A stretch of DNA of 47,030 nt. Source: a virus. Taxonomy: Duplodnaviria; Caudoviricetes. Shown here piece after piece: positions 3,101 to 37,033 of the stretch; the stretch's first letter is position 1, and every line of letters starts with the position of its first letter. The position numbers and the translations under genes are program-made. The stretch spans positions 1 through 47,030 of IMG/VR virus record IMGVR_UViG_3300019996_000002, one strand, 5' to 3'. The notes under the pieces are model-generated. The model had not been told where the DNA came from and did not search any database. It saw nothing but the letters and a program-made list of their open reading frames with translations.

Positions 3101-6100
3101 AGCGGCAACGCCGCCGGCGGCAACGCGAACAAGACGCCGGCGATGGGCGGCGCTCCGGTCTTCAACGACGTCATCGGCTACAGCCCGGTCAACGAGCGCA
3201 CGGTCAAGGGCGAGAAGGTTCCAGCGCGCGACGTCCACGGCTCAAGGAACGACGTCCGCGGCGCGATCGAGAAGCTGCTCGAGACGGGCCACGTCACAAG
3301 CAATCTGATGGAGGGCGCGCTCCGCGTCGCCGAGAACCGCAACGCCGGCAACTGGCGCGATCTGGAACGGCCGATGATCCCGCCACCGTGGGGCGAGCCG
3401 GTAACGCGCGAGTTCACGGACGCGCTCGCCGACGCGATCGACCAGGCCGACAAGCCGGGCGACATGAAAGCCGAGGCCGGCATCGAGCAGGACAGTCTCG
3501 AGACGGCCGAAGGCGATACGTCGTTCGACATCACCGAGTTCAGCCAGTCGCTGTTTGACGCGCTCGAGGATCCGGACCCGACCAAGGAGGAGTTAACCAA
3601 GGTCGACCGGCTCGAGACGGGCGAGCTGCAGCCGCGGCTGCCGGTTGCCGGCGACGTGCGCGAGCAGAACGTCCAGACGCCGGCGTTCGAGGCGCCGTTC
3701 TCCCTGACGTCGGAAGTGTCGACGCAGAAGGGCAAGCAGACCACGCTGTTTCAAGAGCCGGCGCCGGTCACACAGGCGTCGCTCGACCAATTCGCGGAGC
3801 AGGTCAAGGCCGGGCACGGGACCGACGTCGACCGCTTCCAGCTCGCGCTGAACCGCAACGGCGACATCGCGCTCGAGTGGATCATCATCGACCGCGGCGC
3901 GCAGCGGGCCGGCGTCGGCTCGGACGTCATGCGGCAGCTCACGCGCTACGCGGACGCGAACGGCCGGCGGATCCTGCTCTCGCCGGCGGAAGACGCCGGC
4001 AGCACGCGATCGCGCCTGGTCAATTTTTACAAGCGCTTCGGGTTCGTCGAGAACAAGGGACGCGATCGCGACTTCAGCACACGTGCCGGCATGTATCGCG
4101 ATCCCAACGCCGGCGGCAACCTGGGACAGCCACTATTCCACGGCTCCCCGCACGATTTCGAGCGGTTCAGCCTCGAGCACGTCGGCACCGGCGAGGGCGC
4201 GGCGAGCTACGGACACGGTCTCTATTTCGCTGAAAATCCGGCAGTCGCGGCCAACTACCACGATCAACTGAGCGAGGGGCGCGACGTCGTCTCGCTGAAG
4301 CTGGGCAAGATGAAGCTCCGCGCGCCGGAGCTGGACTACACCAAGAACGCGCACATCAACGACGTCGAGAACATTCGCGCGGCGATCGCTGAGGATCTGC
4401 TCGCGAGTCCGCTCGACATGAACGCAGCCGGCGAGGGCGGATTTAGGGATCACGTCCTGGCGATGGTCGACCAGCGGATCGCCGACTACGAAAAGGAGTA
4501 TCCGGAGGGCGTCGCGGCGGCGAAGAAACTCCGCGCCGAGCTGGAAAAGCCTGGCGCGCTGGCGGTCGAGTTCACGAAGACGACCGGCGGCGTCTACCAG
4601 GTCGACATCCCTGACGCGCATATCGACAAGATGCTCGATTGGGACGCGCCGCTCGATGAGCAGCCGGCGGCCGTGCAGCAGCTCGCCAAGGATCTGAAGC
4701 TGTCGCCGGCGCTGATTGGGCTCGAGCACGTCGAGGACGGTTGGCAGATCACCTATGACGGTCAGCCGGTCGGCGTGCCATACAACCGCGAGCAGGACGC
4801 CCGATCGCGCATGCGCTCAGGCTTCCGGCTCGATAGCGGCGATTCAGTCGTCGGCGCCACCGGCGAGGGCGTCTACCATGCGCTGACCGCGGCGCTCGAG
4901 GCGAAGCGAACAAAGAAACTCGTCGCCGAGCGGACCGCGCTCGAGGCGAAGCACTTTCGAGAAGGCCAATACAGCGGAGCGTCGCGCGAGTCGATCATGC
5001 GCGGCACGTCGGACTGGACACGCTGGAACGCGATTGATCTCGAGTTGGAGACGATCAACCGCGGCGCGGCGAAAGAGGCGAGCGACAAGCTGGCCGCGGC
5101 CGGCGTCCCTGGCTTGCGGTATCTCGACCAGGGCTCGAGGGACACCGGCGAGGGAACACGCAATGTCGTCGTCTTCGACGACTCGATCGTCACACTGACG
5201 CACAAGGACGGGAAGCCGTTCACGCCGGCGGAGCGGAAAGAGTTTTTCCAAGGCGGCGGCGGGCCGGAGGAGGGCGCGACGCCGGAGCAACGTCGCGGCG
5301 CGATCCGCTTCGGACCGGATCGGCAGTTCTCGATCGACCTGCTCGAGAAGGCCGATCTGTCGACGTTCCTCCATGAGTCGGGCCATTTCTTCCTCGAGGT
5401 GTTCGGCGACATCGCGGACAACCTGATGGCGGCCGACCCGGAGACGCTGACCGACCAGCAAAAGCATGTGCTCAGCGACTACGGCGTGCTCCTGCAGCAC
5501 CTGGGCGTCGAGAACCGCGGCGAGATCGGCACACCGCAGCATGAGCAGTTCGCGCGATCGTTCGAGGCGTATCTCATGGAGGGCAAGGCGCCGAGCCTCT
5601 CCATGCGGACCCCGTTCGCGCGCTTCCGCGCCTGGCTGACCGGCATCTATCGATCGTTGAAGAACCTCAACGTCCGGCTGACACCTGAAGTCACCGGCGT
5701 CATGGATCGGCTGCTCGCGAGCGACCAGGCGATCAAGGACGCGGAAGCGCAGCGCGGCGTCGAGCCGATGTTCTCGACCGCGGAGTCGGCCGGCATGGAG
5801 CCGAGCGAGTTCGCACTCTACGCGCGCACGATCGCGGACGCATCGAAGGAAGCGCGCGAGACGCTCGACCGCAAGCTGCTCGCCGAAGTGCATCGCGAGC
5901 AACAGGCCGAATGGAAGGCACGGCGCGGCGAGGTCAAGCTCGAGGTCGCCGACCAGGTGCAGCGCCGGCCGGAGTATCAGGCGATCAGCGCCATGCTCGA
6001 CGGCACGAATCCGGACGGCTCGCCATTGGTCGAGGGGCTGACGACGCCCCCGCTGAAGCTCGATCGCAAGCTGCTCGAGGAGATGTTCGGCAAGGACCGC

Positions 6101-9100
6101 GTCAAGCGGCTGCCTCGAGGCATCATCGCGGCCGGCGAGGGCGTCAACCCCGACCTGGTCGCAAGCATGTATGGCTACTCGAGCGCCGACGCAATGCTGA
6201 CCGCGGTCGAGAAGGCTCCGCCGATGCGCGACGTCATCGAGCAGCAGACGAAGCGGCGCATGATCGAGGAGCACGGCTCGATCCTGTTGGATGGCACGCT
6301 GCCGGCGGAAGCACAGGCGAGCGTCGCGAACGAGACGCGCGACGCCGTCATCCGTGCGGAGATGCGCGCGCTGGGCCGGAAGCGGCGCGAGGTCGACCCG
6401 TTCGTCAAGGCGGAGCGCGCGAAGGGACGCGACGCGCTGGCGGCCGAGAAGGCGGAACGCGACTACGAGCGGCGATGGTTCGAGGCGGAGGCGAAGCTCC
6501 GGATCGCGATCGCCGAAGGACACAAGCAGGTCGAGATCGACGCGCTGACGACCGAGGTCCGGCAGCTCAAGGCGCAAGCGCGCGGCGGCGCGGCGGTCAT
6601 TCGCGCGGCGATCCCTGACGCGGACACCGTCAAGGCCGCGGCGCTCGAGCGCGTCGCCGGGACCAAGGTCCGCGATCTCAATCCGGCGGCGTTCTGGTCT
6701 GCCTCGAGGCGAGCCGGCACGCAGGCGCTCGAGAAGGCGGCGCGGCAAGACTTCGACGGCGCGATCACGGCCAAGTCGCAGGAGCTGATCAACCTGGCGA
6801 TCTACCGCGAGATGGAGCGCGCGAAGTCGGACGCGGACGCACGCGCGCGCTACGCGCAGGGGCTGACCAGCAAGGCGGCGCGCGAGCGGCTGGGCAAGGC
6901 CGGCGGTTCGTATCTCGACCAGGTCGACGGCGTGCTCGACCGCTACGAGTTCGCGCGCGTCTCGCAGAAGGCGCTCGACCGGCGGGCTCGGATCAAGGAT
7001 TGGGTCGATGGGCTGCACGCGCAGGGGCTGCCGGTTGAGGGGCTGACGCAGGAGCTGCTCGACGACAGCCGGCGGATCAACTGGAAGGAGACGACCGTCG
7101 CCGAGCTGACCGGCGTCACAGACGGGCTCAAGCAGATCGAGCACCTGGCGCGGCTCAAGAATCGGCTACTCAAGGCGGCCGACAAACGCGAGTTCGAGGC
7201 CGTGCGCGACGGCGTCGCCGATGGGATCCGCGCCAACCTGAAGGAACGGCCGAAGCTGCTCGAGGTCAGGCCGGCCGACCAGGCGAAGCGAATCGCCGGC
7301 GACTACTTCGCGTCGCATCGGAAACTCGCGAGCCTGGCGCAGATGATGGACGGCCACGTCGACGGCGGTCCCATGTGGGAGGCGTTCATCCGGCCGATCA
7401 ACGAAGCCGGGCACCTCGAGGAGACGCGGCGGGCAGAAGCCGGCGGCGCCTACATGAAGATCCTCGACGAGCACTACCCTGGTCGAGAGATCCTCCGGCT
7501 GAACGAGAAGCTGCACATCCCCGCGATTGACGGCAGCCTGAGCCTCGAGGGCCGCCTGGCCGTCGCGCAGCTCTGGGGCTCCGAGACCGGGCGCGAGCGG
7601 CTGACTAACGATCCGTATCGGAAATGGAACGAGCAGCAAGTCCTGGCGATCCTCGACACGCTCGACAAACGCGATTGGGATTTCGTCGCGGCGCACTGGC
7701 AGAACCTCGATAGCTTCTGGTCAGAGATTGCGGCGAAGCAGGAGCGCGTCACGGGCCTGGCGCCGGAGAAGGTCGACCCGCTGCCGGTCCAAACGAAGTT
7801 TGGCGAGTATCCCGGCGGCTACTCTCCGCTCGCCTACGATGGCCGCTTCAGCGTCCGCGCCGGCCAGAACGAGGCGGCGTCGCAGGCGAAGCTGACCAGC
7901 TACTCGCCCTATGTGCAGAACACGACCAAGCGCGGATTCGTCGAGCAGCGCGTCAAGCACGTCGGGCTGCCGGTCCGGCTCGAGCTGTCGGTCGGCTTTC
8001 AGCACATCGACGAAGTCATCCACGATCTGACCCATCACGAAATGCTGATCGACGTCACGCGGCTGCTCCGCGATCCGAAGGTCTCGAGCGCGATGATGGA
8101 GACGGCCGGCGACATCGTCTACCAGCAATTCACGCGCGGGATTCAGGACATCGCGATCGGCTCGACGCCGGCCGCGCGCAACGTCGGCGAGAAGGCGGCG
8201 AATTTCCTCCGGTCGCGGACGCAGCTCGCGCTGCTCGGGCTCAACCTCTGGACCGGGCTGCAGCAGCCGCTCGGCGTCTTCAACGGTATGGACCGCGTCG
8301 GCGTCAAGTGGGTCGCGAAGGGCATGGGGCGCTGGCTGCGGGACGCGGCGAGCATGGAGAAGACGACCACATGGATCGCCGAGGTCTCGCCGATGATGCG
8401 CGAGCGCGTCACGTCGGGCACGCAGGATCTGCACGACTTGCGCGCGGCGTTCAACAAGCCGGGCGGTTGGTTCGACAAAATGGTCCGGACGGTCAGCAAC
8501 GACAAGCTGACGCAGCAGGCGATCGTCGACGGCTACCTCTGGCACATCGGGATCGCGCAGCGCGTCGCCGACGTCCCGACCTGGCTCGGCGGCTATGAGA
8601 AGGCGATGGCGGCGCCGATGGAGAGCCGGAGCGCGGCGGAGCATGAGAGCCGGGCGATCGCGCTGGCCGACCAGGCGGTCCTCGACTCGCAGGGCGGCGG
8701 GCAGGTCAAAGACCTGGCGCAGATCCAACGCGGCGGACCCTACGCCCGGCTGTTCATGACGTTCTACAGCTACGGCAACACGGTCCTCAACGCGACGGCG
8801 CGCAACGTCGAGCGGACCAACTTCCGATCGCCGGCGTCCGTCATGACCTTTCTCGGGCACATGAGTCTGCTCTACGTCCTGCCGGCGCTCGGAACGGCGA
8901 CGCTCGCGTGTGGGTTCGGCAAGAAGCCGTGCAAGGATGCCGGCGACTTTCTGGCGACGGCCGGCGGCGAGATGCTGTCGACCAGCATGAACACGATGGT
9001 CTACGTTCGCGAGCTGGCCGGCGCGGCGGCGATCGCGACCGGCGGCGACGCCGGCGCGCGCGGCTACGGCGGACCGGCGGCGCTCCGGCCGTTCGAGTGG

Positions 9101-9304
9101 GCTCGGCAGCTCTCCCAGCAAGTCAACCAGAAGAAGGCCGACGAGGGGCTTTGGCACGCGGCGAACAATGTCGCCGGCTTCCTGTTCAAGTATCCGGCGG
9201 CGCAAGTGCAGCGCACGATCGACGGTTACATCGCACTCTCAGAAGGACGGACATCCAACCCGGGCGCGCTCCTAGTCGGACCGCCCCCGAAGAACAAAAA
9301 ATGA
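71..9304 (+). CDS. Giant internal virion/DNA ejection polyvalent protein (3077 aa) with GNAT, ART-like and zincin metallopeptidase domains
   Basis: GTG start overlaps the upstream TAG (TAGTG). It is the last of three internal-virion genes after the nozzle. Motifs: GNAT (QRAGVGS...LVNFYKRFGF, about 3800-4100), ART-like (FHGS...GTGEG...GLYF...NVVVFDD, about 4130-5195), HESGH at 5372-5386 with downstream HEQFARSFEAY. Confidence 0.85.
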   Translation: MAGNEYDDLVEQVAQTPAPTPINPYDQVLESQDVEQQHKLRTSLTQQADQSPDAAAEATKLAQRTGLPLDVVQRNLPDMQKRAKIVDTPYRQMLQDTPALATWAAEPAHAAVSHDDMEQLGALDWLVSMPSRAISQSLNEQAYGALRTKSIFQPLTQAEQDQMASYKLHAQMGGELGSGDSWFKGALTKSMKLLTTLIAPQAIPTVAGGAAGAVVGGVGGFAVGGPAGVIPGALAVGKLGAEAGYTFGLGQSAFQVAAGSALDEFSETTDAYGRKLDPEVAKALAVTAGAVNAGLMVFGGKVIAAGMHEGGQQIASRLTQNAIKEAIRQPSVVAAIGQMMKSYGTTLTEGTALMVAMKAGDILTHAIAQSSGERSPVAGQLTPGNIDLFKQPAVKNADGSISTVDSFSVNVDGKEVLLPTVMPDGRHLDQAAALEEFKQTGRNLGTFDSPQAADAFAQQLHEDYAAGKYSQPTIGAQLLGAAAEGVQSFALIGLGGPAMGLARNVRKAQQAQRGVQFFQALGEGVEQSKTHKRLPEGMQSFIEHATKDGPVEKVYAPIDTWTKYWQDRDVDPAAMATELTGRADAYEQARKTGEDLAIPTARYATKLAATEHNAFFAQELRLGPDEQNGRESAALIEQIRKSAGTETKPEESPIRTALLEQLTKAGYPQATAEQMADLFSSATGEGVFGEGVAERGGELGRGGEDISKFYERYGLKVSRPEIETPGGISKPDGTPPAPGEAGGPVAIGEAAVGEGLPLGEAPVDRPEPAGAPAEVQRAAADLSGPAGAVHDVLVDPAIAAAEAALRSEALPAGTKDRLREQGLTPEQIDGMTPAEAADALKGKVAVGKQIPGARPVSDYSPADLANEATRVREMASARRLEKGPRERVLDRKSDAEQNPENYLNAEARKPAPAEEGQRPADLAGQQPGADVRGDGEGRGDGDVAQPGRTTPRGIPEIDEVFRREDKEATTARLTPEVERNLRWILEELVNFPFIEASWHWLTDENAARGKSGNAAGGNANKTPAMGGAPVFNDVIGYSPVNERTVKGEKVPARDVHGSRNDVRGAIEKLLETGHVTSNLMEGALRVAENRNAGNWRDLERPMIPPPWGEPVTREFTDALADAIDQADKPGDMKAEAGIEQDSLETAEGDTSFDITEFSQSLFDALEDPDPTKEELTKVDRLETGELQPRLPVAGDVREQNVQTPAFEAPFSLTSEVSTQKGKQTTLFQEPAPVTQASLDQFAEQVKAGHGTDVDRFQLALNRNGDIALEWIIIDRGAQRAGVGSDVMRQLTRYADANGRRILLSPAEDAGSTRSRLVNFYKRFGFVENKGRDRDFSTRAGMYRDPNAGGNLGQPLFHGSPHDFERFSLEHVGTGEGAASYGHGLYFAENPAVAANYHDQLSEGRDVVSLKLGKMKLRAPELDYTKNAHINDVENIRAAIAEDLLASPLDMNAAGEGGFRDHVLAMVDQRIADYEKEYPEGVAAAKKLRAELEKPGALAVEFTKTTGGVYQVDIPDAHIDKMLDWDAPLDEQPAAVQQLAKDLKLSPALIGLEHVEDGWQITYDGQPVGVPYNREQDARSRMRSGFRLDSGDSVVGATGEGVYHALTAALEAKRTKKLVAERTALEAKHFREGQYSGASRESIMRGTSDWTRWNAIDLELETINRGAAKEASDKLAAAGVPGLRYLDQGSRDTGEGTRNVVVFDDSIVTLTHKDGKPFTPAERKEFFQGGGGPEEGATPEQRRGAIRFGPDRQFSIDLLEKADLSTFLHESGHFFLEVFGDIADNLMAADPETLTDQQKHVLSDYGVLLQHLGVENRGEIGTPQHEQFARSFEAYLMEGKAPSLSMRTPFARFRAWLTGIYRSLKNLNVRLTPEVTGVMDRLLASDQAIKDAEAQRGVEPMFSTAESAGMEPSEFALYARTIADASKEARETLDRKLLAEVHREQQAEWKARRGEVKLEVADQVQRRPEYQAISAMLDGTNPDGSPLVEGLTTPPLKLDRKLLEEMFGKDRVKRLPRGIIAAGEGVNPDLVASMYGYSSADAMLTAVEKAPPMRDVIEQQTKRRMIEEHGSILLDGTLPAEAQASVANETRDAVIRAEMRALGRKRREVDPFVKAERAKGRDALAAEKAERDYERRWFEAEAKLRIAIAEGHKQVEIDALTTEVRQLKAQARGGAAVIRAAIPDADTVKAAALERVAGTKVRDLNPAAFWSASRRAGTQALEKAARQDFDGAITAKSQELINLAIYREMERAKSDADARARYAQGLTSKAARERLGKAGGSYLDQVDGVLDRYEFARVSQKALDRRARIKDWVDGLHAQGLPVEGLTQELLDDSRRINWKETTVAELTGVTDGLKQIEHLARLKNRLLKAADKREFEAVRDGVADGIRANLKERPKLLEVRPADQAKRIAGDYFASHRKLASLAQMMDGHVDGGPMWEAFIRPINEAGHLEETRRAEAGGAYMKILDEHYPGREILRLNEKLHIPAIDGSLSLEGRLAVAQLWGSETGRERLTNDPYRKWNEQQVLAILDTLDKRDWDFVAAHWQNLDSFWSEIAAKQERVTGLAPEKVDPLPVQTKFGEYPGGYSPLAYDGRFSVRAGQNEAASQAKLTSYSPYVQNTTKRGFVEQRVKHVGLPVRLELSVGFQHIDEVIHDLTHHEMLIDVTRLLRDPKVSSAMMETAGDIVYQQFTRGIQDIAIGSTPAARNVGEKAANFLRSRTQLALLGLNLWTGLQQPLGVFNGMDRVGVKWVAKGMGRWLRDAASMEKTTTWIAEVSPMMRERVTSGTQDLHDLRAAFNKPGGWFDKMVRTVSNDKLTQQAIVDGYLWHIGIAQRVADVPTWLGGYEKAMAAPMESRSAAEHESRAIALADQAVLDSQGGGQVKDLAQIQRGGPYARLFMTFYSYGNTVLNATARNVERTNFRSPASVMTFLGHMSLLYVLPALGTATLACGFGKKPCKDAGDFLATAGGEMLSTSMNTMVYVRELAGAAAIATGGDAGARGYGGPAALRPFEWARQLSQQVNQKKADEGLWHAANNVAGFLFKYPAAQVQRTIDGYIALSEGRTSNPGALLVGPPPKNKK
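2730..2770 (+). promoter_or_regulatory. Internal promoter, operator and RBS within the giant gene
   Basis: TTGACA (2736-2741), 17 bp, CAGAAT (2759-2764). Operator-like palindrome GAGTTCTTG-A-CAGAAAGTC at 2730-2748. GGAG at 2767-2770 before ATG 2781. Confidence 0.65.
2781..2990 (+). CDS. Overprinted small basic protein (69 aa), MPLKKG-type phage family
   Basis: Lies in the +1 frame inside the giant gene and has its own promoter and RBS. PLKKG-x4-T-x2-N-x4-M-x-AG-x5-A-x-A-x2-L pattern matches the common small phage proteins of the MPLKKG...NI...AG...QAVAIAL type. Confidence 0.65.
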   Translation: MPKLGSLPPLKKGNDLQTLRDNSLALMSAGMEKGEAMATSLNLAGLRPAASPKSTKSLGAKTKKPQPPD

Positions 9305-9310
9305 TTCGGC

Positions 9311-9781
9311 ATGGAAGACGCAAGCGAAACCCTGGGACCGGCGACAATGACCAATGAGGAGCTAACGGAGCGCGTCATCCGGCTCGAGGAGTGCCAGCGC
9401 AAGATCATCGAGCACCGAGGCATCCTCGACAGCCTGGCGTCGCAGCTCGAGCAAGGCATCCGACCGCGGATCCACAATCTGAACGACGAGCTGCAGCTCC
9501 ACCGGCTTTCGATCAAGGAGCACGACATAGTGCTAGGTATGCTCAAAACCGACATTGCGCTGATGCGCGCGACCGCGGCGACCAGGGAGCAACTCGAGAC
9601 CGGGCTCAAGTCGGTCGGCGAGAAGATCGAGAACGTCCACACGCAGACCGATCTCAAGCTGGACGCGATCAAGGAGACGCTCGACCCGCTGAAGCGCGGG
9701 ATCTATTGGGTCGTTACGGTCATCGTCGGCGCCGTGATCCTGGCCGTCATCGGCCTGGCGCTGCGAGGCGGCAAGCCATGA
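9311..9781 (+). CDS. Coiled-coil protein with C-terminal transmembrane helix (holin/lysis-module candidate)
   Basis: Heptad-rich body followed by GIYWVVTVIVGAVILAVIGLALRGG. Follows the last virion gene. Confidence 0.55.
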   Translation: MEDASETLGPATMTNEELTERVIRLEECQRKIIEHRGILDSLASQLEQGIRPRIHNLNDELQLHRLSIKEHDIVLGMLKTDIALMRATAATREQLETGLKSVGEKIENVHTQTDLKLDAIKETLDPLKRGIYWVVTVIVGAVILAVIGLALRGGKP

Positions 9782-10182: not shown

Positions 10183-10593
10183 ATGGCACCTCTCGAGCCG
10201 CTAGTCGACACTGAGCGCTGCGAATCGTCCAACCTCTCGACCTACGGCTACTCGCCGGAGCGTCGCACCTTGGCCGTCTCGATGAAGACGGGCGAGCTGT
10301 ATCAGTATCATGACGTCCCGCCGGCGCTCTGGGCCGCGTTCCAGAAGGCACCAAGCAAGGGCACATTCTACGGCCGCGCGGTCCGCGGCAAGTTCGACGG
10401 GATCAAACTCACCGGCCATTGTCCGAAGTGCGGCGCGCTGGGGATCGTCGGCGTCAACTGCGAGGACTGCGGGACCGCGGAGGTCGTCGCGGATCCGATG
10501 AAGCCAAAGCGCCGGAGCAAGGCGGACGAGCGCGATCTTGACCTGCAGATCGACCGGATCGCGGAGCACCTTGCACCAGACCCGCGGGACTGA
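10183..10593 (+). CDS. KTSC domain protein with C-terminal zinc ribbon
   Basis: ESSNL..YGY...L.V....G.LYQYHDVP...W..F..APSKGTFY is the KTSC pattern. Followed by CPKC...CEDC. Confidence 0.85.
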   Translation: MAPLEPLVDTERCESSNLSTYGYSPERRTLAVSMKTGELYQYHDVPPALWAAFQKAPSKGTFYGRAVRGKFDGIKLTGHCPKCGALGIVGVNCEDCGTAEVVADPMKPKRRSKADERDLDLQIDRIAEHLAPDPRD

Positions 10594-21117: not shown

Positions 21118-22134
21118 GTGGGGAGGGGGCTAACGAAGATTCGCGCCGACATCCAACCGATCAGAATTGGTCCCTTCACTCTCACGGCGACCGGGCTCGA
21201 GGTCGACCCGCGGAGCAAGCCGTCATTCGAGGAGTATGAGAGCGTCGGCGAGTTCATCAAACGCGCGCACGCGGCGAGCGGCTTCTGGCTGGCCGACTGG
21301 CTGCGCTACGGCGAGAGCCGCGGCGATTGGGAGGAGCGGCTCTCGCAGGCGGTCGACGCGACCGGGCTCTCCGAGAAGACGCTCCGCAACGTGCGCGCGG
21401 TCGGTCGCATCGAGGCATCCCGCCGGCGGGACGATGTCGACTTCAGTCTGCACGAAACCGTCGCCGGCCTGGCGCCGACCGAGCAGACGGACTGGCTCGA
21501 GCGCGCGCATGCGAACGGCTGGGACCGGCGCGAGCTGCGGCTCAACATCCGAGCGGCGAAGCGGACGCGCATCATCGACGGACAGGCGATTCTCAAAGGG
21601 CAGTATCGCGTGATCTACGCCGATTTCCCCTGGCTCTACGACAACCGGCAACCGAGCGGCTCGAGTTCGCAGGACCATTTCCCGGGCCTGACGATTGAGC
21701 AGGGCTGCGAGCTGCCGGTCCGCGCGCACTCGCGGCCGAATAGCGTCTTGTTCTTCTGGGTGACTGCCCCGCTGCTCTACGACCGACCCGGGCCGGCCGA
21801 CATCATCCACGCCTGGGGATTCGAGCCGAAAAGCCAGATCATCTGGGACAAGGTCGATCACAACGTGGGGAGTTACGTCAGCGTCCGGCATGAGATTCTG
21901 GTCATCGCGACCAGGGGCTCCTGTCTACCGGACCGACCAACGCCGATGCAGGACAGCGTCGTCACCGAGAAGCGCCGCGGCGAGCACTCATCGAAGCCGG
22001 AGACGTTCCGCAAGATCATCGAGCGCATGTATGACGGTCCCTACCTCGAGCTGTTCGGCCGGCAGCGCGTCGAGGGCTGGGAGGTCTTCGGCAACGATGC
22101 CCGGCTCTGGGCTGACCAGGCGGCGGCGTCATGA
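21118..22134 (+). CDS. MT-A70 family N6-adenine DNA methyltransferase with N-terminal helical (LmbU-like) domain
   Basis: YRVIYADFPW, LFFWVT, AWGF, IWDK, HEILVIATRG, HSSKPE, YLELFGR, GWEVFGN motifs. Confidence 0.9.
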   Translation: MGRGLTKIRADIQPIRIGPFTLTATGLEVDPRSKPSFEEYESVGEFIKRAHAASGFWLADWLRYGESRGDWEERLSQAVDATGLSEKTLRNVRAVGRIEASRRRDDVDFSLHETVAGLAPTEQTDWLERAHANGWDRRELRLNIRAAKRTRIIDGQAILKGQYRVIYADFPWLYDNRQPSGSSSQDHFPGLTIEQGCELPVRAHSRPNSVLFFWVTAPLLYDRPGPADIIHAWGFEPKSQIIWDKVDHNVGSYVSVRHEILVIATRGSCLPDRPTPMQDSVVTEKRRGEHSSKPETFRKIIERMYDGPYLELFGRQRVEGWEVFGNDARLWADQAAAS

Positions 22135-23689: not shown

Positions 23690-23932
23690 ATGCGGAACAC
23701 AGAGAACAAGACAGCGCTCGGCGTGGCGATCGCGATGATCCTGACGGGCATCGCGATCCTTTCGTGCGTCGGCTGCAGCGCCGGCGTCGGGCTTCGGATC
23801 AACCATGCGCCGCGCTGCGAGGTTCAGACAGTCGTCATGCGCTGGATCGATGGCACCGAGTCTAAGATGGTGCTCAATAGCTGCCGCTACGGCGCGGTCG
23901 GTCGCGTGCCGACACCGGACGAGGCGAAATAA
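23690..23932 (+). CDS. Small putative lipoprotein
   Basis: Basic N-terminus, hydrophobic core, lipobox-like ILSC/VGC, and two further Cys. Confidence 0.6.
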   Translation: MRNTENKTALGVAIAMILTGIAILSCVGCSAGVGLRINHAPRCEVQTVVMRWIDGTESKMVLNSCRYGAVGRVPTPDEAK

Positions 23933-26187: not shown

Positions 26188-26655
26188 ATGAAAATGCGAA
26201 GTGCTCACCGTGTGGCGCTCACGTTCCTGGTCCTGGCAATGTCGGCAACCGTGCAGGCTCAGACGGTCGCGACGCCGAGCAACCGCCTGGCCTGGACCGA
26301 GGTCGGGCAGACCGTCGCGCAGGCGAGCAGCGCGACCTACAACAGCTTCCTCGACACGGCGACGACGGGCGTCGCTGTCGCCGGCGTCACATGCGCGGCC
26401 GGCACGCCGGCGACGGATGCGGCGTGCTCGAGCAACCTGCCGGTCCTGACGCTGGGGCTGCACTCGCTGACGCTGACGCAGGTCATCAGCGGCGCCGAGT
26501 CGGCGAAGTCGGCGGCCGTGACGTTCACATTCGTCGTCGTTGTGCAGCCGACCGCGCTCCGGATTGCGAAGGCGTTCGCGTTCTTCCGCGGCGGCGTGCT
26601 CGCGTCTCGAGGTCGACAGGCGCTCGGCAAGTATCAGATCCGCCCCGTTCGGTAA
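26188..26655 (+). CDS. Secreted Ig/FN3-like beta-sandwich protein
   Basis: Signal peptide ending VQA-Q. Thr/Ala-rich strands with LAW, Y...LD, GLHSLTLT, ESAKS, PTALRI, and a Cys pair. Confidence 0.7.
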   Translation: MKMRSAHRVALTFLVLAMSATVQAQTVATPSNRLAWTEVGQTVAQASSATYNSFLDTATTGVAVAGVTCAAGTPATDAACSSNLPVLTLGLHSLTLTQVISGAESAKSAAVTFTFVVVVQPTALRIAKAFAFFRGGVLASRGRQALGKYQIRPVR

Positions 26656-29857: not shown

Positions 29858-30700
29858 ATGGCAAGCGATCAGATCAACCTGGCGGAAGTGGCGATCATGA
29901 ACAGCCCGGCCGTCGCGAGCTGGGCGAAGACGGTCGCGATCACGCGGATCCGCTGCACGCCGGCCGGCGGTTTCGAGCTGACGTTCGATCGAGACATTCC
30001 GGAGAGCTGGAAATGGCCGAGCAATCCCGCGGTCCCGTCCGACAATTTCCAGTTCACGGTGTGGATCGTGGTGAAGCCGAGCACGGCGCTGGCGATGGCG
30101 GCCGGGTTCGTCCAGATGTGGCAAGGCCGGCCGATGGGCGAGCCGGGCCATGCGCTGCCGCCGATCTTCGCGGTCCCGCCGGGCGACCTGGTGCCGGGCT
30201 GGCGCAACTGGTGGGGCGATCCGCGCAAGCCGTGGGGTCCGATGTCTGACTACGTCCCGCAGGCCGGAGACGCGATCGGGATGTTCATCACGGCCGGCAA
30301 CGGTCGGCTCTGCACCGGACTGGACCAGGCGACCGGGCTCTCCGTGCGCGAGCGGAGCAACGTCGTGCTGTTGACGATGCCGGCCGACGACCGCGTCGAT
30401 AACGTCTACGACGGGACCGGGCCAGTCGATCCGCCCGTGGATCCGCCGGTCGATCCTCCGCCGAGCACGGGCTCAGACCTGAAGGTGCTCACGGCGGCGA
30501 TCGTGGGGCTGACGAACGACGTCCGCGCGCTCGAGGCGGAAGTCGCCGAGCAGGAGCGCACGATCGATCAGCTGGTCATCACGGTCCAGAATCAAAACGC
30601 GCTGCTGGCTACGCTCGCCGGCAAGAAGGCGCCGGCATACGCCGGGACGGTCCGGCTGCTCGGCGTGAACGGGACCGTCAACCTGAATCCCGTTCCATGA
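29858..30700 (+). CDS. Modular protein: Trp-rich beta domain, PVDP linker and coiled coil
   Basis: GAGGAG RBS; domain ending VRERSNVV; (PVDP)3 linker; heptads. Confidence 0.75.
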   Translation: MASDQINLAEVAIMNSPAVASWAKTVAITRIRCTPAGGFELTFDRDIPESWKWPSNPAVPSDNFQFTVWIVVKPSTALAMAAGFVQMWQGRPMGEPGHALPPIFAVPPGDLVPGWRNWWGDPRKPWGPMSDYVPQAGDAIGMFITAGNGRLCTGLDQATGLSVRERSNVVLLTMPADDRVDNVYDGTGPVDPPVDPPVDPPPSTGSDLKVLTAAIVGLTNDVRALEAEVAEQERTIDQLVITVQNQNALLATLAGKKAPAYAGTVRLLGVNGTVNLNPVP

Positions 30701-31188
30701 GCTTCACGATCCGGAACGCCACGCCGGCCGACGTGCCGGCAATCGAGCGCATGGGGCTGCGGTTCGTCGGCAGCGTCGCCAAGTATGGGACGATCTTCCG
30801 CGCGACGCCGCAGTCGATGCAGACGCTGGCCGCGCTGTTCTTCGCACTCGGCGAGGATGCGGCCGTCATCATCCTGGCGGTCAACTCGGACGATCAGCCG
30901 TTCGGCATGATCGCGTGTGTCGTCGCGCCGCAGTTGATCGACGGGACGATCTACGCCGACGAAATGGTCTGGTGGGTCGATCCGGAGGCGCGATCGCTCC
31001 GCGCTGGGCCGGCTCTGCTGACCGCGGCCGAAGATTGGGCTAGGGGCAAAAACTGTTCCATGTTAAAAATGGTCGCGCCTATCCCGTCAACCGTCGGTAA
31101 CTTCTACGAGCGACTCGGGTATCAGCCGATCGAAACGGCTTACGCGAAAGGGCTCAAGGCCACATGGATCCCCTCCTCATCATCTTGA
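30697..31188 (+). CDS. GNAT-family acetyltransferase
   Basis: IRNATPADVPAI, WWVDPEAR...GPALL..AEDWAR, FYERLGY. Confidence 0.88.
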   Translation: MSFTIRNATPADVPAIERMGLRFVGSVAKYGTIFRATPQSMQTLAALFFALGEDAAVIILAVNSDDQPFGMIACVVAPQLIDGTIYADEMVWWVDPEARSLRAGPALLTAAEDWARGKNCSMLKMVAPIPSTVGNFYERLGYQPIETAYAKGLKATWIPSSSS

Positions 31189-31316
31189 TCATTCTGATCT
31201 TGTTCGGCGCTGGCGGGACTGCCTACGTCGGGCCTGTGCATGGCGTGCTGCCGGCGCTGGTGCTGATCCTGGTCGTCATCCTGGTCGTTCGGCTCGCGCG
31301 CGGAGACCGGCTGTAG
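31164..31316 (+). CDS. Small two-helix membrane protein (50 aa; DUF3309-like; not in ORF track)
   Basis: MDPLLIILIILILFGAGGTAYVGPVHGVLPALVLILVVILVVRLARGDRL; stop overlaps the next GTG. Confidence 0.7.
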   Translation: MDPLLIILIILILFGAGGTAYVGPVHGVLPALVLILVVILVVRLARGDRL

Positions 31317-31636
31317 TGGCGGCCTTCACGACGATGGCGCTGATCGGCCTGGCCGCGGCGAGCGGGATCTACGCCGGCAGCAAGCTCGCGAACAAAGGCG
31401 CGAAGAATGACGGCGGCGAGAGTCCGCACGGCTCGATCGGCGGACCAGGGCCAACGCCGCCGACCGCGCCGCCGAGCCTGGCGCTGACCAACAGCGCAGC
31501 GACAGCGACGGCCGCCAACGCCGGCACGAAGCAGCGCAAGAAGGCGCTGGCCGCCGGCACACTCACCAACGGTCCCGGCTCGAGTCAGACGCCGGCCAAG
31601 GCCAAACTGCAGCCTAAGACGCTGCTCGGCTACTGA
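31316..31636 (+). CDS. Small virion-assembly protein preceding portal
   Basis: Gly/Ala/Pro-rich and ends KTLLGY, typical of the pre-portal gene of T7/BPP-1-like podoviruses. Confidence 0.75.
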   Translation: MAAFTTMALIGLAAASGIYAGSKLANKGAKNDGGESPHGSIGGPGPTPPTAPPSLALTNSAATATAANAGTKQRKKALAAGTLTNGPGSSQTPAKAKLQPKTLLGY

Positions 31637-33420
31637 TGGCGCTCTACAGCGATCCCCGGCTTCGGCGTGTGCGCTACGAGCAGCTCGCCGGCAAGATGAT
31701 CAGCGACCGGCAAGGCGGCGGCTTCGATGGACACTGGCGCGAGCTGGGCGATTGGACGATGCCGCGGCGGACGCGCTTCTGGACCGGCGAGAAGAATCGG
31801 ACCGGCGTCGGGTTCAACCGCAACATCATCAATTCGACGGCGCGGTTCAGCGCGCGCACGCTCTCGAGCGGACTGCACGCCGGCCTGACGTCGCCGGCTC
31901 GCCCGTGGATGAAGCTGACCACGCACGATCCGCAGCTCGCCAAGCGCAAGAACGTCGCGACCTGGCTGCACGACGTCAGCTCGCGCATGCTGACGCTGTT
32001 CGCGACGACCAATCTCTACAACGTCCTGCCCCTGGTCTATCTCGACATGGGGATCTTCGCCACCGCCGGCATGGCGATCGTGCCGGACAAGCGCGACCTG
32101 TTCCGCTGTTTCTCCTACCCAATCGGCTCCTTCGCGATCGCGCAAGACGACCGCGGCAAGACGTCGACATTCACGCGGGAATACGAGCTGAGCGTCGAGC
32201 AGATCGTCGAGCAGTTCGGCGTGCTCGACAACGGGCGGGACATTGATTGGTCGCGCATCTCGAACCACGTCAAAAGCCTCTGGGACAGCGGCGACTACCA
32301 GCAGTCGATCCCCTTGGTGTGGATGGTCAAGCGGAACGAGCAGGCGGACGCGCGCAAGCTCGCGAGCAAATACCTGCCGTTTTCGTCCTGCTATTGGGAG
32401 AAGGGCAACGAGGAGCGCATCTTTCTGAAGGAGAGCGGCTACAACAACTTCCCGATCATGGCGCCACGGTGGGACATCACCGGCGAAGACAGCTACGGAA
32501 CCGACAGCCCGGGCATGATCGCGCTCGGCGACATCAAGCAGTTGCAGATCATGGAGCGGCGCAAAGGGCAGGCGATCGCGAAGTTCGTCGACCCGGCGCT
32601 CAAAGGACCGTCGTCGCTCCGGAAGCAGAAGACGAGCCTGTTGCCGGGCGATGTGACCTATGTCGACGTCCGCGAGGGCATGCAGGGGCTCGCGCCGATC
32701 CATGAGATCCGGCTCGAGGGCGTCCGCTTCCTCAGCGACGACGCGCACGGCGTCGAGTATCGAATCCAGCGGGCGTTTTACGAGGATCTGTTCCTCATGC
32801 TCGCGCGCTCGGACGACGGCCGCGGCCAGCAGCCGGCCACGGCTCGCGAGATCGATGAGCGCCATGAGGAGAAGCTGCTCGCGCTCGGGCCGGTCCTCGA
32901 GCGGACGAACGACGAACTACTCGACCCGATCGTCGACCGCACATTCTCGATGATGGTCGCGGCCAACATGATCCCTCCGCCCCCGCAGGAGCTGCAGGGC
33001 GTCCGGCTCAAGGTGGAATACATTTCGATTCTGTCGCAGGCGCAGAAGCTGGTCGGCGTCACGGGACAAGATCGGTTCCTGCAGACGACGCTCGGGCTCG
33101 CCGAGGTCTATCCGCAGGTCCGGAACAAGGTCAACGTCAACAAGGTCGTCAACAACTACGCCGACATGCTCGGCGTCGACCCGGAAATCGTCTACTCGGA
33201 CGAACAGGCCGACGCGACCACGCAGCAGCAGGCGCAGGCGGCGCAGGAAGCGCAGGACGCCGAGACGGCGCAGAAGGTCGCCAAGGCCGCGCGCGATGCG
33301 TCGCAGGCGCCGGTCACTGGCGACTCAGCGCTGAATGCGATGGTCACGGCCGCCGGCCGCGGCAACCAGATCCCGGCACAAGCGAGCGGCTCGGCGCCCG
33401 TGCAAGTGCCGGCAGCATAG
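31636..33420 (+). CDS. Portal (head-tail connector) protein, Bbp21/T7 gp8-like
   Basis: LTSPARPW.KL, PRW.....YG.DSPG..ALGDIKQLQ, TAREI.ER.EEKL..LGPVLER...ELL.P, VEYIS.L.QAQK. Confidence 0.95.
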   Translation: MALYSDPRLRRVRYEQLAGKMISDRQGGGFDGHWRELGDWTMPRRTRFWTGEKNRTGVGFNRNIINSTARFSARTLSSGLHAGLTSPARPWMKLTTHDPQLAKRKNVATWLHDVSSRMLTLFATTNLYNVLPLVYLDMGIFATAGMAIVPDKRDLFRCFSYPIGSFAIAQDDRGKTSTFTREYELSVEQIVEQFGVLDNGRDIDWSRISNHVKSLWDSGDYQQSIPLVWMVKRNEQADARKLASKYLPFSSCYWEKGNEERIFLKESGYNNFPIMAPRWDITGEDSYGTDSPGMIALGDIKQLQIMERRKGQAIAKFVDPALKGPSSLRKQKTSLLPGDVTYVDVREGMQGLAPIHEIRLEGVRFLSDDAHGVEYRIQRAFYEDLFLMLARSDDGRGQQPATAREIDERHEEKLLALGPVLERTNDELLDPIVDRTFSMMVAANMIPPPPQELQGVRLKVEYISILSQAQKLVGVTGQDRFLQTTLGLAEVYPQVRNKVNVNKVVNNYADMLGVDPEIVYSDEQADATTQQQAQAAQEAQDAETAQKVAKAARDASQAPVTGDSALNAMVTAAGRGNQIPAQASGSAPVQVPAA

Positions 33421-33430
33421 GAGGGACGTC

Positions 33431-33760
33431 ATGCGAAGGAAGATCGCGATTCTAGTAGTAGCGGTAATGGTGCTCATCGGATCCCGCGCCGATGCCGTGC
33501 TCGCGCCGCGTGTCACCGTCGCGACGACGGCGACGCTGATCTTTACCGCGCCGCTCGCCGGCGTCAGCCGCGTGTTGATCCGGAACCCTGGCGCCGTCTC
33601 GGTCTACGTCGGGCCGGCGACCGTGACGACGGCGAATGGCTTCGAGATTGCCGGCGGCGATGCGATGGCGATCAACCTGGGCTACGGCGATACGATCTAC
33701 GGCATCGTCGCCGCGTCGACTCAGGTCGTTTACACCATCATCGGAGCGAACCCGCAATGA
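33431..33760 (+). CDS. Small beta-sandwich protein with signal peptide (decoration-like)
   Basis: GGAGG RBS. MRRKIAILVVAVMVLIGSRADA signal peptide, then strands (VLIRN...VYVG...GFEI). Confidence 0.75.
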   Translation: MRRKIAILVVAVMVLIGSRADAVLAPRVTVATTATLIFTAPLAGVSRVLIRNPGAVSVYVGPATVTTANGFEIAGGDAMAINLGYGDTIYGIVAASTQVVYTIIGANPQ

Positions 33761-34317
33761 GAAAGTTTCTGCACACGGCGACGTTTGTCGTCACTCTGCT
33801 GGCTGGCGCGATGATCTGCCGGCCGGCGGCGCAGGACTACGTCAAGGGCTGGGCCACGATCACCGGCCCATTCAGCGTCAGCGGGACGCTCGCCAGTAAT
33901 GGATCGTTCGTCGAGGCAGCCGGCGGCGTGATCTTCTGGAACACGCGCGCCGTCATGGAGAGCCAGGCGGACGGGCATTGGAGTATCGAGAACAACGCGC
34001 AGACCATCGGCGCTCGGATCAAGGTCGACTCGCTGCCGACTGTCGGCTCTGGCTTCGGCACGTCGCCGGCGGTCATCGCAGGCTCGACACCGTTCGCGGG
34101 GTCGGTGAACGTTGGCACTGGCGGCGTCGCGACGTCGGGCGTGATTACCTTCAACGGCACCGCGTTTCCAAGCGCGCCGTTCTGCGTCGCCAGCACCGGC
34201 ACGGCCAATAACTTCCCGGTGAACGTCACGCCGACCACCACGCAGGTGACGCTCGTCAGCGGCGCGGCCTGGCCGGCGTCGATTCTGGTTAGCTGGATCT
34301 GCGTCAGCGCGAAGTAA
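33757..34317 (+). CDS. Fibre/spike-like beta protein with signal peptide
   Basis: MRKFLHTATFVVTLLAGAMICRPAAQ N-terminus; C-terminal GVITF...F.SAPFCVAS...VSWIC fibre-tip-like domain. Confidence 0.7.
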   Translation: MRKFLHTATFVVTLLAGAMICRPAAQDYVKGWATITGPFSVSGTLASNGSFVEAAGGVIFWNTRAVMESQADGHWSIENNAQTIGARIKVDSLPTVGSGFGTSPAVIAGSTPFAGSVNVGTGGVATSGVITFNGTAFPSAPFCVASTGTANNFPVNVTPTTTQVTLVSGAAWPASILVSWICVSAK

Positions 34318-34679
34318 TGGCACTCAACGCCGCCGACCCGCGGCAAGTCAAAGGCGCAGGCCGCCGGCAGCGCGAGCGCGAGGAGCAGCTCCGCGCGAGT
34401 GTCGCGGCCGTCATGAGCCTCGAGGCCGGCCGCCTGGTCATGTGGGAATTGCTCGAGCGGGCCGGCGTCTTCCGGTCGGTCTGGTCTCCCAACAGCGAGA
34501 TCCACTACAAGGCCGGCCGACAGGACTACGGGCATGAGCTGATGGCGACGCTGCTCGAGACCAACGAAGGGCTCTACGAGCTGATGCAGCGCGAGGCACG
34601 AGCACGCGATCGAAAGAACGACGTTACGGCCGCGGCGGAGCAAACGCCGCCGGCCGACACTGAGGGAGAGCGGACATGA
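34317..34679 (+). CDS. Bbp19-like protein
   Basis: VMS..AGR.VMW.LL..AGVF......Y.AGRQ.YG..L pattern; conserved position between portal and scaffold. Confidence 0.8.
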   Translation: MALNAADPRQVKGAGRRQREREEQLRASVAAVMSLEAGRLVMWELLERAGVFRSVWSPNSEIHYKAGRQDYGHELMATLLETNEGLYELMQREARARDRKNDVTAAAEQTPPADTEGERT

Positions 34680-35368
34680 CTGAAGCAGCAGCGGCCGGCA
34701 AGGGTTCCACCGGACCCGGCGCAGACGGCAAGACCGGCGATGAGGGCAAGACTGGCGCGAGCGGCACGACGGAGACGCCTGAGCAAAAGGCGGCGGCCGA
34801 AGCAGCAGCGACAGCGGCGGCGACCACGGCAGCGACAGCCGCGCAAAAGGTCAAGGACGACAAAGCGGCAGCCGATGCCGAAGCGGCGAAAAAATCGAAG
34901 GAGCCGCCGGACAAGTATGAGCTGAAGATCCCCGACGACGCGACCGACTGGCTCGACGCGAACGATCTCAAAGCGATCGAAGGGATCGCCAAGAAAAACA
35001 AGTGGACGCAGGAGCAGGCGCAGGGCGCGCTCGAGGAGCACGCCGAAACCCTGGTCGCGCAGTCCAAAGCGTTCCGCGCCGAGATCGAAGCTGATCCGAC
35101 CTACGGCGGCGACAACCTGGCCGAGACTCAGCGGCTCGCGACGCTGGCGATCGACCGGATCCGCCCGAAGGACACGGACCAGGGTAAAGCGCTCCGGTCG
35201 ATGCTCGCGAAAACGGGTTACGGAAACAACCTCATGGTCGTCAGCCTGTTGGCGGACATGGGAAAAATGATGGACGAGGATTCGACGCACCTGGTCGCAG
35301 GCGCCGGCAAGGGGAAACCGAAAGACCCCGCGGAAGCGCTCTACGGCAAGGAAGCGACGAAGACCTAA
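34676..35368 (+). CDS. Capsid scaffolding protein
   Basis: Low-complexity N-terminus, PDKYELK.P, TQEQAQ, DPTYGG.N, TGYGN, MDED, ALYG end; directly upstream of the capsid gene. Confidence 0.85.
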   Translation: MTEAAAAGKGSTGPGADGKTGDEGKTGASGTTETPEQKAAAEAAATAAATTAATAAQKVKDDKAAADAEAAKKSKEPPDKYELKIPDDATDWLDANDLKAIEGIAKKNKWTQEQAQGALEEHAETLVAQSKAFRAEIEADPTYGGDNLAETQRLATLAIDRIRPKDTDQGKALRSMLAKTGYGNNLMVVSLLADMGKMMDEDSTHLVAGAGKGKPKDPAEALYGKEATKT

Positions 35369-35387
35369 CGTCTCGGAGGCACACACC

Positions 35388-36530
35388 ATGCGAACGATTG
35401 GATTGATCATCGCGGCGACGCTCGGCCTACTGTTCATTGGCCTGGCGATCAGCCACGCCGGCGCACATCAGGCGCTCGGCCAGCTCGCGCACGTCTTCAG
35501 GGATCCGCAGTATCAGGTGCCGATCATGTTCGGCATGGCGGCGCTCGGGACGGGCAACCTGACACTGCTCGATTGGGCGAAACGGCTCGACCCGGACGGC
35601 AAGACGCCGACGATCGCCGAGCTGCTCAACCAGAAAAACGAGATCCTCGACGATATGCAGTGGCGCGAGGGCAACCTCCCGACCGGGCATCGCGTCACGA
35701 TCCGGACCGGGCTGCCGGCCGTCGCCTGGCGTCTGCTCAACCAGGGAGTCATCCCCAGCAAGTCGACGACCGCGCAGATCGACGAGCAGACCGGGATGCT
35801 CGAGGCATGGTCGGAAGTCGACAAGGATCTGGCGCTGCTCAACGGCAACCTCAATGCGTTCCGGCTCTCCGAGAGCCGCGCGTTTATCGAGGCCATGTCG
35901 CAGGAGTTTAGCCGCGTCCTGTTCTACGGCAACGGCGGCGTCAATCCGGAGCAGTTCACCGGCCTGTCGGTCCGCTACGGCGCGAGCGGCGCGGGGAACA
36001 CGGACAACGTCATCAAGGCCGGCGGCGCCGGCGCCGACAACGCGAGCATCTGGCTTGTGGCCTGGGGCGAGGACACGATCAGCGGCATCTTCCCGAAGGG
36101 GAGCAAGGCCGGCCTGATCCATGACGACTTCGGCGAGCAGACGAGCGAGGTCGTCGCCGGGCTGCCGGGCGCGCGCATGCGCGTCTATCAGGAGCGGTTC
36201 CAGTGGAAGGGCGGGATCGCGCTGAAGGATTGGCGCTACGTCGTCCGGATCTGCAACATCGACGTTTCCGACCTGAACGCGGCCAACGTCAAGACGTTGA
36301 TCAACTTCATGGAGCAGGCGATCGAGACCATCCCCGACAACCTGGGCCGGCCGGTCTTCTACATGAACCGCACGATGCGGCGCTTCCTCCGTCGCGAGGC
36401 GCGCGAGTCGGTCGGTTCCGGCGGCGGGCTCACCTACGAGAACTACGACGGCAAGCGGATCCTGATGTTCGGCGACGTGCCGATCAAACGCGCCGACACG
36501 CTGCTCAATTCGGAGGCGCTGGTCGTCTGA
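35388..36530 (+). CDS. Major capsid protein (BPP-1 Bbp17/epsilon15 gp7-like) with 49-aa hydrophobic N-terminal extension
   Basis: AKRLDPDGK, EGNLPTGH..TIRTGLP, GMLEA.SEVDK.LA.LNGN..AFRLSE, PKGSKAGL, DWRYV.RICNIDVSDL, LLNSEALVV. GGAGG at 35375-35379. Confidence 0.96.
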   Translation: MRTIGLIIAATLGLLFIGLAISHAGAHQALGQLAHVFRDPQYQVPIMFGMAALGTGNLTLLDWAKRLDPDGKTPTIAELLNQKNEILDDMQWREGNLPTGHRVTIRTGLPAVAWRLLNQGVIPSKSTTAQIDEQTGMLEAWSEVDKDLALLNGNLNAFRLSESRAFIEAMSQEFSRVLFYGNGGVNPEQFTGLSVRYGASGAGNTDNVIKAGGAGADNASIWLVAWGEDTISGIFPKGSKAGLIHDDFGEQTSEVVAGLPGARMRVYQERFQWKGGIALKDWRYVVRICNIDVSDLNAANVKTLINFMEQAIETIPDNLGRPVFYMNRTMRRFLRREARESVGSGGGLTYENYDGKRILMFGDVPIKRADTLLNSEALVV

Positions 36531-36604: not shown

Positions 36605-37033
36605 ATGTTCATCGACGCACTTCTCAAGGTCTCGAGCGCGCAGGCGATGGGCGCCGGCGCCGTCTCGACCAACTCGATCGACCTGGCGCTCCTGACGCCC
36701 GGCCGGCAGGTTGGCACGGGCGAGGCGCTCGGCTTCGGTATCAACGTCGACGTCGCGGCCACCGTCGCAGCGACCGATTTCGAGATCATCAGCGCGACCG
36801 ACGCGGCGCTGACGGCCGGCATCTTGTCGCACGTCAAGGTCACGATCCCGCTCGCGACGCTGGTCGCGGGCTACCAGCTCTTTCTGCCACTGCCGCAGGG
36901 CACGCCGACGCAACGCTACATGGGCATCCGGACGACGACGGCCGGCGGCACCATCACAATCAGCGCCTGGCTGTCGACGCATTCGATGTTCTCCCTGGCG
37001 CAGCGCTACTACGCGAAGAACTACGTCGTCTAG
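36605..37033 (+). CDS. Capsid cement protein (Bbp16-like)
   Basis: MFIDALLKVS.AQA......STNSIDL, RY.G, GTITISAWL; directly after the capsid gene. Confidence 0.85.
   Translation: MFIDALLKVSSAQAMGAGAVSTNSIDLALLTPGRQVGTGEALGFGINVDVAATVAATDFEIISATDAALTAGILSHVKVTIPLATLVAGYQLFLPLPQGTPTQRYMGIRTTTAGGTITISAWLSTHSMFSLAQRYYAKNYVV

Follow-up and report, generated by a model that had tools for sequence, protein, structure and literature searches.

A signal-like, probably cleaved leader on the BPP-1-type major capsid protein of an uncultured soil podophage

The usual view is that tailed phages build their heads from soluble subunits. The capsid protein of HK97 carries a removable propeptide, and such delta domains are soluble scaffolds that are cut by a phage protease. 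In the filamentous phages f1 and M13, the procoat is laid out as a signal, a spacer and a membrane segment, as is the leader described here. According to the available text of PMC3185693, procoat is a capsid protein that inserts into the membrane and then loses its leader to a host peptidase. The membrane helix of f1/M13 is the virion protein itself and the phage is extruded, whereas in the present case an HK97-fold domain follows the membrane part, and no homology between the two was found. A removable capsid leader cut by a host protease is already known from Staphylococcus phage 80alpha, in which the host enzyme Prp removes it and in which it is dispensable for viable phage (PMC5744158, accessible portion). 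The 80alpha leader has 13-14 residues, is cut between F and A, is common to the scaffold and holds no membrane segment, whereas the leaders reported here have 30-57 residues, are hydrophobic, end at a Gly junction and occur on the capsid protein only. Membrane-associated head assembly, which we propose here from sequence, is known from phage T4; the T4 prohead is tethered via its connector and a separate protein, unlike the arrangement proposed for our phage. A 2011 review states, in the sections available, that membrane association of head assembly had not been shown for phages other than T4. No description of a signal-like leader on a tailed-phage capsid was found in the literature that we searched, which included the accessible text of PMC3185693, PMC5723332, PMC12989515 and PMC13059738 and little from subscription journals.

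The stretch of DNA analysed here (the window, 47,030 nucleotides) is a single, complete virus record that has direct terminal repeats, a 47-kb uncultured podophage from soil. The sequencing runs that contain its DNA are soil or sediment metagenomes, and no RNA dataset was among the runs listed. The late module runs from the portal gene (31636) through two small ORFs, a Bbp19-like gene, a scaffold-position gene (34676-35368), the capsid gene (35388-36530) and a Bbp16 cement gene to the tail and internal virion genes. The order portal, Bbp19, scaffold, capsid, Bbp16 is common with the BPP-1 type. The head genes lie as follows:

31636..33420, + strand: portal (head-tail connector), from family matches; without a leader
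34676..35368 (stop codon TAA at 35366-35368), + strand: scaffold-position gene, phrog_458; no Pfam peptidase match; without a leader
35375..35379, + strand: ribosome-binding site GGAGG of the capsid gene (-9.5 kcal/mol); an equivalent Shine-Dalgarno (SD) sequence of -4 or better stands ahead of the leader ATG in 37 of 39 leader loci read as DNA
35535..36530, + strand: HK97-fold, BPP-1-type core of the major capsid protein (PF20911, E 4.4e-125; phrog_212; structure matches)
36605..37033, + strand: Bbp16-type cement protein, from a family match; without a leader

The capsid ORF (380 aa, ATG 35388 to 36530) encodes a major capsid protein of the BPP-1/epsilon15 type (PF20911). The PF20911 profile matched residues 68-380 at 417 bits against a cut-off of 27, Foldseek returned an HK97-like fold (3j4u, E 1e-25), and the neighbouring portal, Bbp19 and Bbp16 genes are of the BPP-1 type. 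In sequence and fold the core resembles BPP-1 Bbp17 (3j4u), epsilon15 gp7 (3j40) and the Carin1 capsid (8cjz). The solved capsids (3j4u_A, E 4.7e-95; 8cjz_Y; 3j40_A) aligned from residue 50 or 51 onward, confirming the observation of an earlier note on this DNA that capsid similarity starts near Met50. Unlike the present protein, the capsids of BPP-1, epsilon15 and Carin1 start at the position of Met50. On re-reading, the positions recorded in that note for GGAGG, the ATG at 35388, Met47 (35526) and Met50 (35535) were all correct; AGGTG lies at 35515-35519 and Gly49 occupies 35532-35534. Low-depth contigs from a second soil study matched 35200-35483 and 35265-35500 with 0 and 1 differences, and because they cover the start of the leader, it is not an assembly artefact.

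Ahead of the core, the window capsid carries a leader of 49 residues that resembles a bacterial membrane-targeting signal and ends in Gly. Its parts are as follows:

35388..35450, + strand: leader segment 1 (Met1-Ile21), a basic start and a hydrophobic helix (AlphaFold helix 2-24; K/R; hydropathy)
35451..35465, + strand: S-H-A-G-A, a signal-peptidase-I-like site predicted by eye; the family consensus is D-x-x-A-A
35466..35513, + strand: variable His-rich spacer (His27-Tyr42), from spacer composition over 111 leaders
35514..35534, + strand: leader segment 2 (Gln43-Gly49), short and hydrophobic, with near-invariant Gly49 as the proposed cut site (Gly conservation)
35515..35537, + strand: weak possible internal start (AGGTG, Met47, Met50) within a predicted local hairpin (pairing energy, fold)

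The best 19-residue hydropathy was 2.48 in the leader versus 0.82 in the core, and among 959 stop-free 49-codon windows in six frames only two reached 2.48, both of them membrane-type ORFs. Of 111 distinct leaders, 107 had a lysine or arginine within residues 1-6. A D/E-x2-3-A type motif was found in 71 of the 111, the D being missing in the window's subgroup, and the loose x-x-A pattern, which is easy to meet, in 110. By motif and hydropathy the leader thus has the Sec/signal peptidase I layout, with a basic n-region, a hydrophobic h-region and small residues at -3 and -1. The 111 spacers together hold 57 D/E, 21 K/R and 145 H, more acid than base, and between spacer and junction there is often an aromatic residue with several Gly, followed by hydrophobic-hydrophobic-Gly. 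On an insertion scale that is approximate, being built from residue values with our own weighting, the median was -0.33 for segment 1 and +2.15 for segment 2, and the best core window scored +7.67. Segment 2 of the window scored +4.0 on this approximate scale, and an equally weak segment 2 was seen in eight of the 91 leaders without a nearby Met; we regard segment 2 as a marginal membrane helix. AlphaFold placed the second helix of a typical member at residues 36-50 with a pLDDT below 50. An Atlas search with residues 1-60 gave no usable match, and a region search with a typical leader matched one capsid. The earlier note had pointed to the A-G-A motif as cleavage-like; a signal-peptidase-I-like site does lie there by motif, but a cut at that site alone fails to free the capsid, and the conserved junction Gly49 lies 23 residues further on.

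Comparison with relatives indicates that the leader is coding, obligatory in most of them, conserved in layout and optional across the clade. Among the best 120 of 8000 homologues scored, 77 had a leader extension of 30-57 residues and 43 had none, and the core-Met column of those 77 held G in 65, M in 7, V in 2, T in 2 and S in 1. Because the core Met is replaced in 70 of these 77, the leader must be translated, and trimming such genes to the first capsid-like Met, as annotators might, is wrong. Since gene callers can misplace starts, we read the DNA of 228 loci including the window; nine cut-short loci were dropped and duplicates merged, which left 39 loci with a leader, 136 without and two odd ones. 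The 108 matches to cultured phages, all below 60% identity (40 of them listed), lay outside these loci. Seven of the 39 leader loci had an ATG within -8 to +6 codons of the core, and in four a start of any kind in that range was preceded by an SD of -5 or better. The GC3 of the 39 leaders follows that of the core. Pooled over three close pairs, picked as unsaturated, the leader showed 25 synonymous changes per 104.6 sites and 12 replacements per 318.4 (pN/pS 0.16), whereas 73 other, more distant pairs gave 0.31-1.50. These counts show purifying selection on the leader in the three close pairs, and over longer times the letters change but the chemical character is kept. The question raised by the earlier note, whether the leader stays open and hydrophobic in homologous capsid genes, is answered by these loci: the layout is conserved, mostly without an internal start. 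This speaks for a leader that is translated, of membrane type and probably cleaved.

One of the two odd loci (L076, around 8570-8720) has a leader with a one-base frameshift just before the junction and no other start near the core; the frameshift may be a sequencing error. The other (L211) has a weaker leader at 51% identity. A leader profile run against 1.84 billion representatives gave three matches, two capsid fragments and one AlpA-domain protein. In the latter (P0254; ENA, a singleton on a 696-base contig), a leader of the same layout, ending in M-I-F-G, precedes an AlpA helix-turn-helix domain. The record may be chimeric; a genuine fusion would place the leader module on another cytoplasmic protein. 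No relatives of P0254 were found, and none of 25 AlpA loci of the likely host order had a leader.

The junction Gly was present in 107 of the 111 leaders by the offset rule and was invariant in the 39-row alignment. It stands at the position of the initiator Met of leaderless forms, or just before a kept Met, and we infer that cleavage behind it would leave the same N-terminus as Met removal does in leaderless relatives. Four different codons encode it, indicating that the constraint is on the residue. Tested in 12 registers against the rhomboid pattern of PMC2941825 (accessible text), the junction Gly was the best, with a small P1 in 107 of 107, a large P4 in 66, a hydrophobic P2' in 85 and all three in 61. 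It follows a median of 11 uncharged residues and precedes 12. Rhomboid motifs usually lie near the N-terminal end of a membrane segment, according to the same portion of PMC2941825, and GlpG cuts HybA after Gly, in a metastable membrane segment (PMC7232013, available sections). As far as those sources go, the leaders resemble the rhomboid substrates Providencia TatA and Shigella HybA in their small P1 (Gly in HybA) and unstable membrane segment, but the known sites lie near the periplasmic end and cutting there leaves a product that remains membrane-bound or is broken down, whereas here a soluble structural protein would be released. The -3/-1 rule of signal peptidase held at the same Gly in 95 of 107 leaders, a better fit than that of the rhomboid pattern.

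Class III (prepilin) signals have K/R before the Gly, Glu at +5 and a helix after it; lipoprotein signals have Cys at +1, twin-arginine signals S/T-R-R-x-F-L, double-glycine leaders Gly-Gly, and the Prp motif is L-Q-x-F. In our leaders, K/R just before the Gly, Glu at +5, Cys at +1 and Gly-Gly were each found in 0 of 107, and the twin-arginine and Prp-type motifs each in 0 of 111; the scaffolds are without a Prp-type leader. Regarding homology to inovirus procoat, 39 leaders gave no coat family among 14 Pfam matches (E up to 1) and none in the PDB. A resemblance to the N-terminus of ATP synthase c/K subunits (18.5 bits, E 0.023) was rejected as chance level, which was 17-18.7 bits in 61 genomes.

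The reading that we prefer, and to which we give an even chance on what the letters alone can tell, is that the leader is a transient membrane tether that a host protease removes after the Gly. The precursor, the capsid protein with its 49-residue signal-like leader, would be anchored by that leader in the inner membrane of the host, and the capsid domain would be left in the cytoplasm. Segment 1 would enter the membrane, probably N-in, and be trimmed by signal peptidase I; segment 2, weaker and Gly-rich, would return to or lie in the membrane. The cut between Gly and Ala or between Gly and Met, giving a normal BPP-1-type subunit, would then be made by a membrane protease of the host, a rhomboid being the most plausible. 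The likely use would be that subunits are held or concentrated at the membrane until taken up by scaffold and portal. Packaging of DNA takes place in the cytoplasm, where the other head proteins are too, and most relatives have no other start, so that the capsid domain must end in the cytoplasm. From the positive-inside bias, segment 1 would be N-in and the spacer external, and the chain would come back through segment 2. Once a shell has closed, hundreds of its N-termini can no longer sit in a membrane, and removal of the leader is therefore likely. Moreover, about 415 retained hydrophobic helices would be hard to square with an N-terminal peptide of the BPP-1 type, which is external and pairs with the cement protein (PMC3863775, accessible text). 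Against the tether stand the weak segment 2, the position of the Gly after the hydrophobic stretch, the full rhomboid fit in no more than the 61 leaders given above, and the leaderless relatives, which build heads.

A rhomboid would be the favoured enzyme. None of 11 near-complete records contained a phage rhomboid (control 14/14) and none of 5 genomes a JAB protease; none of the eight leader genomes had an ORF with three or more membrane segments, and no gene family was present in all eight yet missing from three leaderless genomes. With neither a phage rhomboid, nor JAB, nor a leader-linked gene among these records, a host enzyme would be needed. Among 106 further ORFs there was one putative metallopeptidase, in one genome. 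Rhomboid matches occurred in 31 of 31 Vicinamibacterales-order genomes at 2-6 per genome; as host rhomboids are near-universal, their presence only removes an obstacle. No signal was found on scaffold, cement or portal in any complete genome where these were called, so assembly should be cytoplasmic.

As dozens of related capsids have this leader as an obligatory part, a membrane-signal role for it would bring into head assembly both a step at the membrane and a host membrane protease; it would mean a viral substrate for bacterial rhomboids or signal peptidases, and would expose a host function able to limit host range or serve in defence. A wider version is tentative and, in our judgement, rather unlikely: that the HK97-fold capsids of many uncultured tailed phages pass the host inner membrane by means of a signal-like hairpin with a rhomboid cut at Gly, as a portable module, acquired and lost across capsid families, for which some lineages would bring their own rhomboid and this one would use that of its host.

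The same precursor and the same Gly cut could also go with a simpler topology, the best of the alternatives although an unlikely one. Segment 1 would be a plain anchor, or Sec would take no part, the rest would stay cytoplasmic, and a soluble or surface protease, from the host or encoded at the scaffold position, would read hydrophobic-hydrophobic-Gly as Prp reads its site. This arrangement accounts for a segment 2 that is too weak to cross, as in the eight of 91 leaders without Met and in the short forms L044, L153 and L158, and it has a precedent in 80alpha (PMC5744158, accessible portion). The scaffold-position gene just upstream is labelled 'protease' in PHROGs and in some GenBank records; however, all 11 genomes have it, whether or not they carry the leader, and it has no Pfam peptidase match. 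The basic N-terminus, the acid-biased spacer and the kept A-x-A-like site point to N-in, the Prp-type motif is lacking from all 111 leaders, and the BPP-1 capsid is reported as uncleaved in the available text of PMC3863775.

For the window's subgroup, an improbable alternative is a dual start, in which shell subunits would come from Met47 or Met50 and the long form would be either a separate isoform, exported or anchored, or a relic in decay. The earlier note had raised dual starts and a second isoform; for the family this does not hold, since no such start is possible in 70 of the 77 leader homologues (best 120 of 8000), and in the window's subgroup the case is weak. With an anti-SD motif, pairing was -9.5 kcal/mol at 35388, -6.2 at 35526 (Met47, through AGGTG) and -1.5 at 35535 (Met50); nine large genes served as background, and among their 167 internal ATGs one reached -9.5 and 11 reached -6.2. 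M-F-G-M is kept in the window and in all five of its close relatives, which also retain a weaker segment 2. AGGTG at its place, however, needs Gln, Lys or Glu and then Val at residues 43-44 and is encodable in none of these five, and the Met47 start is predicted to be paired (unpaired probability 0.21-0.24 versus 0.52). A near-junction Met goes with a weaker segment 2 (3.70 versus 2.08 in 20 and 91 leaders) and with a mostly missing D motif (present in 5 of 20 versus 68 of 91). The link with segment 2 was, however, not significant on seven independent pairs (3.0 the same way, 0.3 opposite; p 0.25), and P0004, a member of the same clade, combines a weak segment 2 with the lack of such a Met. 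An RNA hairpin over Met47/Met50 was rejected as a feature: its z was -3.2 in a window chosen after seeing the fold and -1.5 in a broader window, one background window among 23 equalled it, and it is not conserved.

It is very improbable that the gene is a polyprotein whose cut-off leader is itself useful as a small peptide of the membrane, produced alongside the capsid, for lysis timing or exclusion of other phages. The two hydrophobic segments, the very high copy number and the selection in close pairs would suit such a peptide; on the other hand, it has no family match and turns over fast, as the 73 more distant pairs indicate, an internal signal-peptidase-like site would split it, and no replacement gene was found in the three leaderless genomes.

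That heads assemble on, or carry, hundreds of retained hydrophobic leaders, with the Gly as a helix-packing residue, ranks after this and is hardly to be expected. Gly-x-x-x-Gly-type packing (Gly with a small residue four on) was present in 87 of 107 leaders, but the small residue at +4 also belongs to the leaderless forms, in which it is G, S or A in 119 of 136. The external N-terminus of BPP-1 (PMC3863775, accessible text) would favour retention, but the cement binds the N-terminal peptide, and leader length (30-57) and sequence vary freely. An uncleavable 80alpha capsid protein is viable according to the available portion of PMC5744158, but that leader has just 14 residues.

That the upstream sequence is non-coding or neutral, with translation from Met50 only, as Met50 in the window and the 136 leaderless loci might suggest, is largely refuted by the replaced core Met of relatives, the SD at the leader ATG, codon use, selection and hydropathy, and by the leaderless loci, which, unlike the window, have a median of 2 (at most 19) open codons upstream and an SD directly ahead of the core ATG.

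The share of loci with a leader fell with distance, from 29 of 49 at an identity of at least 65% to 8 of 48 at 60-65%, 2 of 52 at 55-60% and 0 of 26 below. A tree of 163 DNA-verified cores required 18 leader changes, 11 of them forced by well-supported branches; with gene-caller proteins added (218), there were 35 changes, 19 of them forced. As such trees do not tell gain from loss, the changes were counted undirected. By the DNA-verified tree the leader is optional, with at least 11 changes. The spacing from start to upstream stop had a median of 17-25 bases in both leader and leaderless classes, indicating that a locus has either the whole leader or none of it. Of 53 window genes, 27 are also present in the leaderless genome G007, a larger number than in most genomes with a leader. 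Natural near-twins with and without the leader, such as P0004 and P0006, allow direct comparison.

The DnaB of the window was 42-48% identical to that of 31 Vicinamibacterales-order genomes and 34-41% to that of three other orders (11, 9 and 13 matching genomes, of 13 each), a comparison of one gene over four orders that tentatively points to an Acidobacteriota host. The matches of a DnaB homologue search did not name a host. A genome-contig scan with the single capsid protein gave no match, and one with the capsid alignment gave 17 loci, all in metagenome bins; these were rejected as hosts because they are metagenome bins of mixed phyla. A capsid relative was present in 1 of 401 Vicinamibacterales-order genomes, a bin that was already known.

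Several other ORFs of the window were recorded, all on the + strand. Between portal and Bbp19, the ORFs at 33431-33760 and 33757-34317 open with plain signal-peptide-like segments; residues 21-108 of the former match predicted models of 88-residue viral proteins, which suggests that signal-less relatives exist. Accessory ORFs with similar signals are present in leader and leaderless phages alike, and the two in the window are possibly exported decoration proteins. Without a good family match were a further signal-bearing ORF ahead of the terminase region (26188-26655), a lipoprotein-like ORF (23690-23932) and a 50-residue two-helix membrane ORF (31164-31316). No endolysin family was recognised in the scanned window ORFs, the internal virion protein aside. 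A polyvalent protein of 3077 residues (71-9304) matched LPD22 and, weakly, GNAT and ADP-ribosyltransferase; a one-helix XhlA-like ORF (9347-9781), a KTSC domain (10183-10593), an MT-A70 methyltransferase (21118-22134) and, ahead of the portal, a GNAT acetyltransferase (30697-31188) were also seen. In G004 (L239, 805-2325) and G010 (L256, 2686-4224), terminase-like ORFs have an in-frame signal-like stretch upstream from a GTG/TTG start, which may be a miscalled start. Finally, 3' of the cement gene, L036 and L007 carry small virion-type ORFs that look alike by eye, one with and one without a signal-like start.
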